A stretch of DNA of 64,000 nucleotides from Coriobacteriia bacterium. Its GTDB lineage: Bacteria; Actinomycetota; Coriobacteriia; Anaerosomatales; SLCP01. Below, one piece after another: positions 47,468 to 53,086 of this stretch (positions are counted from its first letter, which is position 1; the number at the start of each line of letters is the position of its first letter). The position numbers were made by a program, and so were the translations under genes. Below the pieces are notes generated by a model, which was given only the letters and a program-made list of their open reading frames with translations, was not told the origin of the DNA and made no database searches. The stretch is from assembly GCA_014859265.1 (NCBI GenBank), contig JACUUN010000250.1:1240-65239 (forward strand), in the 5' to 3' direction.

Positions 47468-48634
47468 ATGGCGCATGAGGACCACGACGTAATCTACGAC
47501 CTTCTCGCAGCGAGAGGCGTGTCGCGCCGCGACTTTCTCAAGTACTGCGGATCGATCGCGGCGCTTCTGGGACTGTCCGAGTCCTTCGTACCTCAGATCG
47601 CTGCAGCCGTGGCCGCCGGCGCGAAACTGAAGCCCGCTGTATGGCTTAACGGCGGCGCATGCACGGGGTGCACGGAGTCGATAGCGCAGGTCGATTCGCC
47701 CGACGTGGCGACGATCGTGCTGGATCTGCTCTCGCTCGACTACATCGAGACCCTCTCCATGGCCCAGGGTGAAGACGCGCTTGCCGCGGCCGAGGCGGTA
47801 TTCGAAGAGCCCGGCTACATCCTCATCTATGAGGGTTCCGTCATGCAGGGCTTCGACGGCAACACGCTGCGCATCGGTGGCAGCACAGGTATCGAGGAAC
47901 TCGAGCACGCAGCCCAGAATGCGGCAGCGATCGTCGCTGTAGGGTCGTGTGCGGTCGACGGCGGTTTCGTCAGGGCCAACCCGAACCCCGCCGACGCGAC
48001 CGGCGTGAAGCCCTACCTCGAGAAGGTGGGCATCACCACTCCCGTCGTCAACCTGCCCACCTGCCCCGTTAACCCGGAGTGGGTCGTGGCCATCGTCGTG
48101 GATGTTCTGCTTCTCGGATCTCTCGAGAGCGGCGCCATCCTCGACAAGCTCGACGACTGGGGCCGTCCCAAGTTCATCTTCGGCCAGACGATTCATGACA
48201 ACTGCCCGCGCCGCGGCCACTTCGAGAATGGCCACTTCGTCAACGAATTCGGCACCGAAGAAGAGGCCCTCGGCTACTGCCTGTACAAGGTAGGCTGCAA
48301 GGGCCCGCAGACCTACACGAACTGCCCGATCGTGCGCTGGAACCGTCGCGCCAGTTGGTGCGTCGAGTCCGGAGCACCCTGCATCGGTTGCGGCAGCCTC
48401 AACTGGGTCGACGTCGGAGCTCCGTTCCTTAACCGTCATCGTGACCTGCCTCTCCCCAGCGTCGGCAACACCCAGCCCGGCGTGGTTGCTGGCGTGGTCG
48501 CTGGTGCCACGGCACTGGGTCTCGGCCTCCATGCCCTCGGTATGAAGGCAAGTGGCCGGATGGACGGCGGCGCTCCCTACGAAGACATGAAGAACTACGA
48601 CCGCAAGCGGATGAAGAAGGGAGGCGGTAACTAG
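47468..48634 (+). CDS. hyaA: Hydrogenase small subunit, Tat-exported, C-terminally anchored
   Basis: AAGGAGG RBS; SRRDFLK Tat motif; CTGCTES, GSCA, PTCP, HDNC, CLYKVGCKGP, NCP, WCVESGAPCIGC; C-terminal hydrophobic helix. Confidence 0.96.
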   Translation: MAHEDHDVIYDLLAARGVSRRDFLKYCGSIAALLGLSESFVPQIAAAVAAGAKLKPAVWLNGGACTGCTESIAQVDSPDVATIVLDLLSLDYIETLSMAQGEDALAAAEAVFEEPGYILIYEGSVMQGFDGNTLRIGGSTGIEELEHAAQNAAAIVAVGSCAVDGGFVRANPNPADATGVKPYLEKVGITTPVVNLPTCPVNPEWVVAIVVDVLLLGSLESGAILDKLDDWGRPKFIFGQTIHDNCPRRGHFENGHFVNEFGTEEEALGYCLYKVGCKGPQTYTNCPIVRWNRRASWCVESGAPCIGCGSLNWVDVGAPFLNRHRDLPLPSVGNTQPGVVAGVVAGATALGLGLHALGMKASGRMDGGAPYEDMKNYDRKRMKKGGGN

Positions 48635-50280
48635 TGGCTCGATCAGTTGTCGACCCGTTGACCCGAATCGAAGGTCACCTTCGCGTCGAGGTCGAAGTCA
48701 ATGACGGTGTCGTGACCGACGCCTGGGTGTCCGGCGGGCTGTATCGAGGCATGGAGACCATCCTGCTCGACCGCCGTCCCTCAGACGCGTTCTTTGTCGC
48801 CCAGCGTATCTGCGGTGTGTGCCCAATCTCTCACGGCCACGCCTCAACGATGTCGACAGAGGACGCACTCGGAGTCACGATCCCGAACAACGCGCGTCTC
48901 GTACGCAACCTCATCGAGGCCGCACAGTACATCCACAGCCACATCTTGTGGTTCTACACCCTGGCAGCACTGGACTACGTCGACCCGGTGAAGGCACTGT
49001 CGGCCGATATCGCCGACACCTACGCGCTCGCGCAGGCTGCCGGCACCGGTGTCTCCGACTTCGGTGCCGTCGCCAAACGTCTGCAGGCGTTCGTTGACAA
49101 CGGCCAGCTGTCCATCTTCACCAACGGCTGGTTCGGCCATCCTGCGTACGCCGAGGACATGCCCGCCGAGCTGCACCTCATCGCGGTCGCACACTACCTC
49201 GAGGCGCTCGAGATGCAGGCTGTCGCAGCCGAGATCATCGCAGTCATGGGTGGCAAGTTCCCGCACTTCATGACCTCGATCCCCGGCGGGACCGCCTTCG
49301 TGCCGACCGAGCAGAAGCTCGACGACATCCTGTTCCGCTTCATCAAGCTGCGTGACTGGGTCACGAGCACCATGATTCCGGACACGCTCGCCATCGCACC
49401 GTTCTACGCCGGTGCGCTCGAGTACGGCGGAGGGCACGGGAACTTCCTCGCGTGGGGCGTGTTCAACGACGAGTCCTTCGAGATGACCAGCCGCTACCTG
49501 CCCGGTGGTGCGGTCATGGCGAGCCGGGGGCTCACTGTTGCCGATCCCGACCCTGGCAATATCACCGAGTACGTCGAGCGTTCGTGGTACGACTCGACCA
49601 CGGGCCTCAACCCATCCGTCGGCGAGACGAACGCGAACTTCGACGAGTACAGCACCGATGCTCAGTACTCATGGGTCAAGGCACCCCGCTACGACGGCCA
49701 GCCGATGGAGGCCGGTCCCCTCTCCCGAATGCTCGTCGCGTACCTTCGCGGCGTTCGTCCGGTCCAGGAGATCGTTGACGGCGCGCTCGCTGCCCTTGGC
49801 GCAGCAGGCAAGCCGGAGGTCCTTGTGTCGCTGCTCGGTCGTATCGCAGCCCGCAACCTCGAGACCAAGGTCGTCTGTGACTGGTCGATCGACTGGTTCA
49901 ACGAGCTTGCCGGAGCCATCGCCGGAGGAGATTCTAAGTACTTCGAGCCCCACGACGTGGATGCCGGTCAGGGTGCAGGAATGTGGGAGGCGCCTCGTGG
50001 CGCTCTCGGCCATTTCATCGACATCCAGGGCGGCAAGATTGCCCGCTACCAGGTTGTCACCCCGTCGACATGGGACACCTCGTCTCGTGATGATGAGGGC
50101 GTTCGCGGCCCGATGGAAGAGGCGCTCGTCGGCACTCCGATCATCGATGCCGAGCGTCCGCTCGAGGCGTGCCGGGTCGCACGTAGTTTCGATCCTTGAA
50201 TCGGGTGCGCGGTTCACGTGATTGAACCGAAAACCGGCAAGGAAGCAACCGTCTACACGAAGCCGATGGGGGTGAGGTAG
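48634..50280 (+). CDS. hyaB: [NiFeSe]-hydrogenase large subunit (selenocysteine at TGA 50197-50199)
   Basis: TRIEGH, QRICGVC (L1). The frame continues SFDP-U-IGCAVH-VIEPKTGKEATVYTKPMGVR to TAG 50280, completing L2 and abutting the next ATG at 50281. Confidence 0.96.
50210..50229 (+). promoter_or_regulatory. Bacterial SECIS-like stem-loop
   Basis: CGGTTCA-cgtgat-TGAACCG, 7-bp stem beginning at the 11th nt after the UGA, GU in the loop. Confidence 0.8.
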
Positions 50281-50961
50281 ATGTCGCATCCCGCACACTA
50301 CCGTGAGGCTCATCCGCTGATCTTCGTGTTCACGCACTGGATCAACCTGATCGCGATAGTAGCCCTGGCGTTCTCGGGCTTCTACATCCACTACCCCTTC
50401 TTCGGCGGGTTCATGGGTGTGGCTCGCGGCATGCACTTCTTCTTCATGTACGTACTCCTCATCAACCTAGCCGTGCGCATCGTCGCCACGTTCTTCGTGA
50501 AGTCGGCGACCCGTCTCGGCACGCGTGAGGTCGATACGGACATCAAGAACTGGCTACCGCAGAAGCTCAACCGCCACCAGTTCATCCCGTGGCTCAAGTA
50601 CTACCTGTTCCTGAAGAAGGACCATCCGATCGGGGCGAAGTATGGTGTTCTGCAGAAGATCTCCTACCTCTTCACCATCCCGCTCACGCTTGCGGCTGCT
50701 TACACCGGCTTCTCGATCTATGCGCCATTCATGGATGCGAGCTTCTTCGCTGCAGGTACCGACTGGGTCGGCGGGCCGATGAACATGCGGATCATCCACT
50801 ACTACATCATGTGGGCGTTCATCTTGTTCACGGCGATCCACGCCTATCTGGCGAACGTGGAAGGCATTGCTCCTTCCCGTCTGATCTTCGCGTGGAAGGA
50901 AGAAGAAGGCGTTCAGTTCGACGCAGAGGGTAAGATCGTCGGTGGAGCTGGACACTACTAA
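50281..50961 (+). CDS. hyaC: Ni/Fe-hydrogenase di-heme b-type cytochrome subunit
   Basis: Four TM helices with His ligands (THWIN, GMHFFF, RIIHYY, AIHAYL); YGVLQKISY. Confidence 0.93.
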   Translation: MSHPAHYREAHPLIFVFTHWINLIAIVALAFSGFYIHYPFFGGFMGVARGMHFFFMYVLLINLAVRIVATFFVKSATRLGTREVDTDIKNWLPQKLNRHQFIPWLKYYLFLKKDHPIGAKYGVLQKISYLFTIPLTLAAAYTGFSIYAPFMDASFFAAGTDWVGGPMNMRIIHYYIMWAFILFTAIHAYLANVEGIAPSRLIFAWKEEEGVQFDAEGKIVGGAGHY

Positions 50962-50989
50962 GAGCTCCGACCGATGCTCGTCACACCGG

Positions 50990-51019
50990 CGAGGCCCCGG
51001 ACGCACGTCCGGGGCCTCG
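50990..51019 (+). terminator. Hairpin after the hydrogenase structural genes
   Basis: Perfect 13-bp stem CGAGGCCCCGGAC / GTCCGGGGCCTCG followed by TTT. Confidence 0.7.
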
Positions 51020-51139
51020 TTTGCGCCGCAGAGGGAAGCGGAATGTGAGGCCGCACCTCACCGGGACGGAATGCGGTAGAGTATTCGCCACACATCTCGC
51101 ACGAATCGGCTACATGATGGCGTGCATGAGAGGATACGG

Positions 51140-52468
51140 ATGCTTTCCGAACGCATCATCACTACAGCCCTCCGCATACTGAACAAGCACTACCTGCATC
51201 AGGAACCCATCGGCCTCGAGTCGGTTCCCGGACCTCAGCCCAGTCACGGATACGTCCTCTATGCGCATGTCCCCTTCTGCGAGCGTCTCTGCCTCTACTG
51301 CTCGTTCAACCGGTATCTCTTCCAGGAAGATCGGGCACGCGAGTACTTCAAGCGGCTCCGGCGTGAGATGCAGATGGTCGCAGAGCTCGGGTACGACTTC
51401 CCGTCCCTTTACATCGGAGGCGGAACCCCGACCATTCTGCTCGACGAACTCGCCGAGACGATCGATCTGGCACGCAGTCTCTTCTCGATCGAAGAGGTAT
51501 CGAGCGAGACAAGCCCGAACCACCTGGGCCCGGAGCTCGTCTCCGTGCTCAAAGACCGGGTGCAGCGTCTTTCGGTGGGCATCCAGAGCTTCGACGACAG
51601 GATACTGCGGCAGGTCGACCGGTACGACAAGTACGGGAGCGGCGAGGAGATCTTCGAGCACATCGGTTCGGTAGCCGGAAAGTTCCACTCGCTCAACGTC
51701 GATCTGATCTTCAACTTCCCGTCCCAGACCGAGGAGATGCTGCGACGCGACATCGAACTGTTGAAGGCCTCGGGAGCGAACCAGACGACCTTCTACCCGC
51801 TCATGGCATCGCCCCGAACGCGGGCAGAACTCGCCCGTCAGGTCGGCAACATCGATTTCGCACGGGAGGCGCGATACTACCGCATCATCACCGACAGCCT
51901 GACTCCCGAGTTCCAGCCGACCTCGGCATGGACGTACTCCCGTGACACCGACGCGATGATCGACGAATACATCGTCGACTACGGAGAGTATGTCGGCATC
52001 GGCTCTGGTGCACTCTCATTCCTCGATGGGCGCATCTACGGCAACACCTTCTCACTGCGGGACTACATCGCACGCATCGATGCCGGGCACATGTCGGTGG
52101 CAAAGGCGGGCAAGCCCTACTCGAACACGGCGATGCGACGCTACCGTTTCGTGACCGACCTCTTCGGTCTCAGACTCGACAAGGAGCGGTTCCAGCGCGA
52201 CCTCGGCGCGCCAGTAGAGCGCGGGCTCTGGGCCGAACTGGCCTTCATGCGCGCGGCAGGGGGAATCGCCGGAGACGACGGGCGCTACATCACTCTCACG
52301 GAGAAGGGGCGCTACCTGCTTATGGTCATGATGAGGGAGACACTCGCCTCCTCGAACGACCTCAGAGATCATGCGCGCGACGAACTGCCGCCGGATGAGC
52401 GCATGCTCCTCATCGAGGGAGAGCAGTGCGAGGAGGTCCCTGGCAATGCGCACCGCGCCGCCATGTAG
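51140..52468 (+). CDS. menK: HemN-like class C radical SAM enzyme, probably menaquinone C-methyltransferase MenK
   Basis: ATG 51140 with GAGAGGA RBS; YAHVPFCERLCLYCSF, YIGGGTPT, RLSVGIQSF, NVDLIFNFP, and QTTFYPLM, which matches the MenK/MqnK signature as I recall it. Confidence 0.7.
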   Translation: MLSERIITTALRILNKHYLHQEPIGLESVPGPQPSHGYVLYAHVPFCERLCLYCSFNRYLFQEDRAREYFKRLRREMQMVAELGYDFPSLYIGGGTPTILLDELAETIDLARSLFSIEEVSSETSPNHLGPELVSVLKDRVQRLSVGIQSFDDRILRQVDRYDKYGSGEEIFEHIGSVAGKFHSLNVDLIFNFPSQTEEMLRRDIELLKASGANQTTFYPLMASPRTRAELARQVGNIDFAREARYYRIITDSLTPEFQPTSAWTYSRDTDAMIDEYIVDYGEYVGIGSGALSFLDGRIYGNTFSLRDYIARIDAGHMSVAKAGKPYSNTAMRRYRFVTDLFGLRLDKERFQRDLGAPVERGLWAELAFMRAAGGIAGDDGRYITLTEKGRYLLMVMMRETLASSNDLRDHARDELPPDERMLLIEGEQCEEVPGNAHRAAM

Positions 52469-52528: not shown

Positions 52529-53086
52529 GTGACCACCGTGACCGAACGCATCCTCATACTCGGCATCGGAAACCCTCTCATGACCGACGAGGGCGTGGGC
52601 GTCCGCGTCGCCGAGCTCATCATGGGCGGCTACGAACTGCCCGATAGCATCGAGGTGGTCGATGCCGGCACGATGGGCCTTGGCATCATGAACCTCTTCC
52701 GCGATCGCGACCTGGTCGTCGTGGTCGACGCAGTCGACAACACCGGCCACGAGCCGGGAACCGTAATCCTCCTCACGCCCGAGGAACTCGCTCCTGCCCA
52801 AATAATGCACTCTCTTCACGACATGCGCTTCGTGAACGTGCTCGAGGCAGCAGCCCTCACAGGCATGCAGCCGGAGGCGATCTGTGTCGGCATCCAGGTC
52901 GCCCGCATGGAGCAGTGGGTAATGGAGCTGACGCCCGAGGTCGAGGCGGCACTTCCCGCGGCGGTCGCTGCGGTCCTCGACATCCTCGCCCAGCGCGGTA
53001 TCCGGCTGTTACCTGTCGAGGGTGGATCGATCGACGCCAGCATCATCGAGGCGATACGCACGCGCAGCCGAATGCCCGAGGCCTAG
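52529..53086 (+). CDS. hyaD: Hydrogenase maturation protease
   Basis: ILGIGNPLMTDEGVG, VVDAGT, VVVDAV, SLHD. Confidence 0.95.
   Translation: MTTVTERILILGIGNPLMTDEGVGVRVAELIMGGYELPDSIEVVDAGTMGLGIMNLFRDRDLVVVVDAVDNTGHEPGTVILLTPEELAPAQIMHSLHDMRFVNVLEAAALTGMQPEAICVGIQVARMEQWVMELTPEVEAALPAAVAAVLDILAQRGIRLLPVEGGSIDASIIEAIRTRSRMPEA

Follow-up and report, generated by a model that had tools for sequence, protein, structure and literature searches.

We propose that the UGA codon at positions 50197-50199 of the window, the stretch of 64,000 nucleotides of Coriobacteriia DNA analysed here, is very probably decoded as selenocysteine (Sec), and that this residue serves as a nickel ligand of a membrane-bound uptake hydrogenase. 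On a wider scale, it seems likely that Sec is the standard nickel ligand, probably of single origin, of the cytochrome b-linked uptake hydrogenase throughout the Anaerosomatales (OPB41) and neighbouring environmental Coriobacteriia. These enzymes would then form a membrane-bound, presumably quinone-reducing [NiFeSe] lineage that is separate in origin from Group 1a. Where such an enzyme is the sole group-1 hydrogenase, as it is here, the hydrogen lithotrophy of these bacteria of the subsurface would depend on the supply of selenium.

The large-subunit gene and its neighbours

In the ORF list and its translation, the large-subunit ORF (48634..50199, + strand) is closed by TGA 50197-50199 immediately after ...ARSFDP, as the first-pass annotation had observed. 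That annotation had also proposed that reading this TGA as Sec gives the motif DPUIGCAVH and a frame that stays open up to a TAG at 50280, adjoining hyaC, and this is borne out by translation and by the PF01292 match of the following gene. With TGA read as U, the translation runs ...SFDPUIGCAVHVIEPKTGKEATVYTKPMGVR*, the TAG occupies 50278-50280, and the cytochrome b gene begins without a gap at ATG 50281. Only with the UGA read through is the whole PF00374 profile covered (positions 1-508 of 508, 1e-164). The read-through product carries the N-terminal motif RICGVCPISH, with C60 and C63 invariant across the alignment, and, with UGA as Sec, the C-terminal motif DPUIGCAVH. The 78 usable loci from reference genomes comprised 19 with TGA (DPU[IVML]GC[AG]VH) and 59 with TGC or TGT, and the UGA of the window aligns with the TGC/TGT codons of the 59 Cys-type homologues. 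By a gap-free count back from the C-terminal His that is shared, it also falls on the Sec position of the solved [NiFeSe] chains.

Crystallised mature large subunits terminate on the His that aligns with His528, and we therefore predict that the C-terminal tail is cleaved off after this residue. The last codons of the tail (50266-50283, AUG GGG GUG AGG UAG AUG) hold a Shine-Dalgarno-like GGGGUGAGG for the next gene. Since the large-subunit stop also abuts the cytochrome b start, translation of cytochrome b may be linked to whether the UGA is successfully read through. Sec-type and Cys-type relatives alike conserve a G-V close to the tail's end.

The genes on either side encode the other components of the enzyme (Table 1). 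The longest ORF of the small subunit begins at GTG 47420, and its likely start is ATG 47468. The protein has a Tat signal (SRRDFLKYC) and a C-terminal membrane anchor. It also carries WCVESGAPCIGC, that is, a Cys where [3Fe-4S] enzymes have Pro, from which a medial [4Fe-4S] cluster is predicted. This Cys was considered as a Sec-specific marker and rejected, as it was present in 18 Sec-type and 55 Cys-type small subunits, a count made on every small subunit recovered by a looser pattern from the related loci.

The large subunit described above is the sole group-1 hydrogenase in the genome, which has no Cys-type group-1 copy. A second [NiFe] large subunit lies on another contig (C102:6573-8435). 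It has a 672-codon open frame with no internal stop, PF00374 matched it in three stretches, and it is probably a cytoplasmic group-3-type enzyme.

Table 1. Features of the Sec-type hydrogenase locus in the window, with Cys-type paralogues of other genomes of the order
Feature	Coordinates	Strand	Details
Hydrogenase small subunit	47468..48634	+	PF14720 9e-31, PF01058 4e-25
Hydrogenase large subunit	48634..50280	+	548 codons with UGA as Sec; PF00374 1e-164
In-frame UGA, proposed selenocysteine 522	50197..50199	+	Site of the first Cys of the C-terminal nickel-binding motif
SECIS-like hairpin in coding sequence	50210..50229	+	7-bp stem CGGUUCA/UGAACCG, 6-nt loop CGUGAU; centroid fold
20-residue C-terminal tail VIEPKTGKEATVYTKPMGVR	50218..50277	+	Predicted to be removed by protease after His528
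Membrane cytochrome b subunit (HyaC-like)	50281..50961	+	PF01292 Ni_hydr_CYTB 3e-21
Radical-SAM gene, 448 aa	51122-52468		Between the cytochrome b and maturation protease genes; PF04055
Hydrogenase maturation endopeptidase (HycI/HyaD family)	52529..53086	+	PF01750 6e-28
Cys-type paralogues	G045:C2:25920-27545, G061:C5:19284-20909, G095:C22:27790-29430, G225:C84:131-1768		

Selenocysteine machinery and genetic code

A search for selA, selB, selC and selD had been suggested as a check on the Sec reading. All of them were found in the genome (2.34 Mb, 255 contigs, 97.7% complete), clustered outside the window on one contig (C44:10394-18455), and each scored above its curated cut-off (selB 371 bits, selA 599 bits, selD 373 bits and tRNA-Sec, with anticodon UCA, 72 bits). 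The selD gene itself has an in-frame TGA at its GUxxK site (C44:10424, STKAGUAAKWGP), which argues that the organism uses Sec elsewhere. Directly behind this TGA lies a long hairpin (GCUGCGA-AGUG-GGUCC-GGA-GGACC-UCGCAGC), which does not resemble the one in the hydrogenase gene.

The suggestion that reads might instead show TGC or TGT at 50197 was followed up in metagenomes. Contigs of five metagenome runs had no other letter at 50197-50199; this comparison used assembled contigs from two studies with a 1% threshold, and contigs can drop rare variants. Some of the covering "volcano metagenome" contigs showed no differences from the window and some represented diverged co-occurring strains, and all of them keep the TGA. 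A sequencing error at the TGA was rejected on the basis of these contigs. Thus, both the presence of the machinery and the unchanged TGA support the reading of the codon as Sec. Further mud-volcano contigs (runs X1-X5) match the window only at 50188-50253, which holds the UGA and the hairpin, and then diverge. These short matches suggest that several co-occurring populations carry Sec-type hydrogenases. One metatranscriptome contig (run X6) was a partial cytochrome b gene of a relative only, and we give it no weight as evidence of expression.

The code of the genome also bears on the possibility that the UGA is translated as another amino acid without selenium, either as Trp by reassignment or as Cys or Trp by near-cognate suppression. 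TGA is the commonest normal stop and closes 999 of 1888 long frames, tRNA-Trp has the anticodon CCA, and the only UCA tRNA in the genome is tRNA-Sec. Based on these observations, we rejected UGA-to-Trp recoding, which a preprint has proposed for some Eggerthellaceae, members of the same class (bioRxiv 10.64898/2025.12.01.691617). Cys at codon 522 would yield a normal [NiFe] enzyme, but Trp cannot bind nickel at this position, and no internal TGA was found in selA, selB or the other genes searched. The complete Sec machinery and the hairpin, which is conserved and has the spacing of a SECIS, likewise speak against decoding without selenium, which we regard as very unlikely.

The hairpin downstream of the UGA

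The first-pass annotation had described a 7-bp hairpin with a GU-containing loop that starts at the 11th nucleotide after the UGA, a spacing that it considered fitting for SelB-dependent bacterial SECIS elements. Both the structure and its spacing were confirmed: the hairpin is the centroid structure at 50210-50229, and its first paired base is the 11th nucleotide past the UGA. In a SECIS of the Escherichia coli fdhF type, the minimal element consists of an upper stem-loop that lies 11 nt past the UGA and carries GU in its loop. The coding-region hairpin of the window also starts 11 nt after the UGA and has G-U in its apical loop; it differs from the E. coli element in that it has no bulged U and no supported lower helix and is unrelated in sequence. 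A lower helix that RNAfold added (nt 6-8 with 38-40) was rejected, as it showed no covariation and was no better than shuffles.

When folded as a single sequence, the hairpin has an energy no better than that of shuffles (z = -0.08), and an Rfam search of 49000-51500 at E <= 10 returned chance matches only and no SECIS family. Evidence for the hairpin therefore comes from comparison between loci. A hairpin was present at the same place in all 58 of the 58 Sec-type loci examined. The mean MFE of nt 10-37 was -9.9 kcal/mol in 19 Sec loci and -4.4 kcal/mol in 59 Cys loci (Mann-Whitney p = 2.6e-9). The two basal pairs take four forms that compensate one another (GCG..CCG, GGC..CGC, GGG..CCC and GCC..CGG), with pair 14-33 being G-C in 24 sequences and C-G in 15, and pair 15-32 G-C in 31 and C-G in 14. 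These pairs link bases 2 and 3 of an Ala/Gly codon to bases 3 and 2 of a Pro/Arg codon six codons on, and since the two codons switch in a coupled manner, the changes are not explained by protein constraint. The covariation score was 0.178, compared to 0.057 +/- 0.014 for shuffles, and was reached by 0 of 500 shuffles; slid registers scored far below the register of the hairpin. Taken together, the element shows what is expected of a bacterial SECIS, namely a conserved stem-loop after the UGA with G(U) in the apical loop and compensating changes in the stem.

It is conceivable that Sec is inserted but that this hairpin arises chiefly as a side effect of the Val-His-Val-Ile-Glu codons, in which case the true SelB element would be different or larger. 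Compensating changes are absent from five of the seven stem pairs, which overlap with the conserved Val-His and Ile-Glu codons, so that covariation is limited to two pairs; these two, however, swap between G-C and C-G beyond what the protein requires, and Cys-type homologues with a similar motif (VHV-T/S-EP) at the same site are without the hairpin. A neighbouring register is used by 6 of 51 sequences (for example, GUCCAC-GUG-GUGGAC), which would suit a by-product, but this subgroup keeps a hairpin in place, and its loop retains GUG. The SECIS of selD in this genome looks different, being longer and beginning immediately behind its UGA, and the lack of an Rfam family match points the same way as this difference; against a larger element stands the candidate lower helix, with its lack of covariation. 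On balance, we give a by-product origin of the hairpin only a slight chance and take the hairpin at 50210-50229 as the probable SelB element.

Conservation and distribution among relatives

Exactly one TGA was found in the large-subunit gene of at least 127 of the 301 sampled genomes of the class. The TGA-bearing genomes come from nearly every family of the window's order and from some other families, with none in three other families. Among named relatives, Anaerosomatales and Coriobacteriia MAGs are the nearest. In some genomes of the order, the Sec-type gene is accompanied by a Cys-type paralogue that has 60-63% identity and no stop (Table 1).

It had been anticipated that annotation pipelines could miscall such a gene as truncated, and every public record checked does stop at the UGA. 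The NCBI nr entry for the large subunit of this genome is 521 aa long and cut at the TGA. Among the 120 best protein matches, 119 end in SFDP and the remaining one has DPCVACAVH, and all members of the protein's own cluster and of eight related clusters are at most 521 aa long or end in SFDP.

The sequence beyond the UGA behaves as coding sequence. None of the 53 unique Sec sequences has a stop in the 20-codon stretch that follows the UGA, and the entropy at the three codon positions of this stretch (0.57/0.46/1.10) shows the same pattern as in the 20 codons upstream of the UGA (0.63/0.49/1.22). This indicates that the frame after the UGA is translated and is under the same purifying selection as the frame before it. 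The least tenable reading, a true stop that leaves a truncated gene or pseudogene with a product of 521 residues, agrees with the public gene calls, all of which end at the TGA, and with TGA being the commonest stop codon of the genome, but is scarcely credible given that this product would be without two of the four metal ligands and the processing-site His, that the 27 downstream codons are open and conserved with the same codon-position constraint in 53 unique sequences, that exactly one TGA is kept at the same position in at least 127 genomes of many families, and that the gene is the sole group-1 hydrogenase of a genome in which the cytochrome b and protease genes are retained.

In 16 of the 127 TGA-bearing genomes, there was no selA match (E <= 1e-60). 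Five of the selA-less genomes (G079, G129, G131, G285 and G073) are 93-98% complete and keep the TGA hydrogenase. Four of these five (93-96% complete) also gave no selB match and had a borderline tRNA-Sec (46-50 bits), and in G073 pieces of selB were found where contigs end. Among some 100 MAGs that are fairly complete, loss of an 8-kb cluster would be expected in about 5%. The missing sel genes are therefore roughly what MAG incompleteness predicts, and we take them, as a caveat, to be probably due to it.

Phylogeny and class of the hydrogenase

A tree was built from 78 large subunits with the motif and the tail left out. In this tree, 18 Coriobacteriia Sec sequences fell into one group (SH-aLRT 88; 17 of the 18 at 95), separate from the Eggerthellaceae Cys clade and from the Nitrospirota/Deltaproteobacteria Cys clade. 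One further Sec sequence (L083) was at the base of the latter. Only 2 Sec/Cys changes are needed on the tree, compared to 17.3 with shuffled labels, and, as the tree is unrooted and made by a quick method, these changes stand for gains or losses alike.

The first-pass annotation had held that DPUxxCxxH defines [NiFeSe] hydrogenases. This holds for the chemistry of the enzyme and does not extend to membership of the classical clade, since the bit scores place the enzyme outside of it. Against solved chains, the large subunit scored 404-447 bits with the standard [NiFe] group-1 enzymes of Desulfovibrio, the best being those of D. vulgaris Miyazaki and D. fructosovorans at 440-447 bits, and about 370 bits with E. 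coli Hyd-2. The solved [NiFeSe] chains reached only 325-350 bits, in two stretches. Membership of the classical periplasmic [NiFeSe] clade (HydDB Group 1a) was rejected, as HysA-type scores were below those of standard [NiFe] enzymes. The sequence comparison thus suggests an enzyme that is [NiFeSe] in chemistry and lies outside the classical periplasmic clade, nearer to standard group-1 [NiFe] hydrogenases.

The first cultured Anaerosomatales encode a small subunit, a large subunit, a cytochrome b and a protease in one cluster, which has been assigned to HydDB Group 1i [NiFe], and the description of these bacteria mentions selenium only as an untested electron acceptor (PMC9686372). Among the cultured members of the order, Anaerosoma tenue M08DHB and Parvivirga hydrogeniphila Es71-Z0120 are both able to grow on H2 (PMC9686372). 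A Coriobacteriia host and a cluster of the same four components are also what we find here. Our tentative placement in a Coriobacteriia-type Group 1i carries over this published assignment of the equivalent cluster.

Discussion

Based on the families named above, we infer the following route from codon to enzyme. SelD would make selenophosphate, and SelA would convert Ser-tRNA(Sec) to Sec-tRNA(Sec). As the ribosome reaches the UGA, SelB would bind the hairpin at 50210-50229 and deliver Sec, and translation would continue to the TAG at 50280. The product would be a large-subunit precursor of 548 residues in which Sec522 replaces the first Cys of the C-terminal nickel-binding motif DPCxxCxxH. 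After metal insertion, the HycI-type protease is predicted to cut behind His528 and remove the tail of 20 residues. The Tat signal of the small subunit would export the dimer. Electrons from H2 would pass through three Fe-S clusters to cytochrome b and, presumably, on to the quinone pool.

This enzyme can be compared with several known systems. The HysAB hydrogenases of Desulfovibrio vulgaris Hildenborough and Desulfomicrobium baculatum (PDB 2WPN, 5JSU and 1CC1; Group 1a) have Sec first in DPUxGCxVH, Gly after U-x, a small-subunit Cys at the medial-cluster position and a C-terminal tail removed by protease, all of which are seen or predicted here, and the last 40 residues of the mature chains align and end on the same His. 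In contrast, the lower score of these enzymes (325-350 bits vs 440-447 for standard [NiFe]) points to a different lineage for the enzyme of the window, which also has a membrane-anchored small subunit and a cytochrome b in its operon. To our knowledge, all characterised [NiFeSe] hydrogenases are either soluble or lipid-anchored in the periplasm of sulfate reducers or cytoplasmic in methanogens, and those of the HysAB type, periplasmic and soluble or lipid-anchored, are without a cytochrome b.

Group 1i hydrogenases of Eggerthellaceae and Anaerosomatales (PMC5037454, PMC9686372) occur in the same class of hosts. Their large subunits are 50-55% identical to the one described here and have a similar tail (VHV-x-EP-x-TGK...GV-K), and the four components of the Anaerosomatales cluster equal those of the window (PMC9686372). 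The Eggerthellaceae enzymes differ in that they have DPCTACAVH, with TGC/TGT, and no hairpin. Further, Group 1i is described as [NiFe] in the publications (PMC5037454, PMC9686372). The HydDB paper gives [NiFeSe] variants in groups 1a, 3a and 3c only, and neither it nor a selenium-genomics paper mentions Sec hydrogenases of Coriobacteriia. A literature search on NiFeSe with Coriobacteriia, Actinobacteria or Group 1i, with subscription journals outside its coverage, found no report. Within that same coverage, the [NiFeSe] lineage and architecture proposed here appear not to have been described as such.

The Sec/Cys pairs of Methanococcus (Fru/Frc and Vhu/Vhc; groups 3a and 3c) also have Sec at the C-terminal nickel motif, and the Cys-type paralogues found in some genomes of the window's order resemble this arrangement. 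However, the Methanococcus enzymes are cytoplasmic and archaeal, with an archaeal type of SECIS, and the genome studied here is without a Cys-type group-1 copy. Sec-containing Group 4 [NiFe] hydrogenases were found in silico in 2026, in a study from which groups 1-3 were excluded (PMC13582414). Those genes, too, were hidden by truncated gene calls and recovered by extension through the TGA; they differ in having Sec in the N-terminal motif. Our findings are therefore not new in principle: the chemistry is familiar, as are the mechanism of decoding and the problem of annotation, and the same kind of discovery has been made for Group 4 (PMC13582414).

What the present case would add is a large natural lineage wired to a membrane cytochrome b, which would widen the known range of [NiFeSe] hydrogenases. 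These enzymes are prized for fast hydrogen production and for quick recovery after exposure to oxygen. The lineage would also offer a natural comparison of Sec and Cys within one subgroup, between environmental Coriobacteriia and Eggerthellaceae, and would tie hydrogen oxidation in the deep subsurface to the availability of selenium. In the public records checked, the protein is cut before two of its metal ligands, so that metabolic reconstructions and hydrogenase surveys misread or discard these genes.

One locus departs from the pattern seen in the Coriobacteriia. The MAG of L083 has a second Sec-type large subunit (L083:4528-4575, DPULGCGVH). The body of this protein groups with the Cys-type enzymes of Nitrospirota and Deltaproteobacteria, and its hairpin is nearly identical to that of the window (GGUUCA-CGUGAU-UGAACC). 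This mix could reflect convergence, an ancestral state or an exchange of the 3' end.
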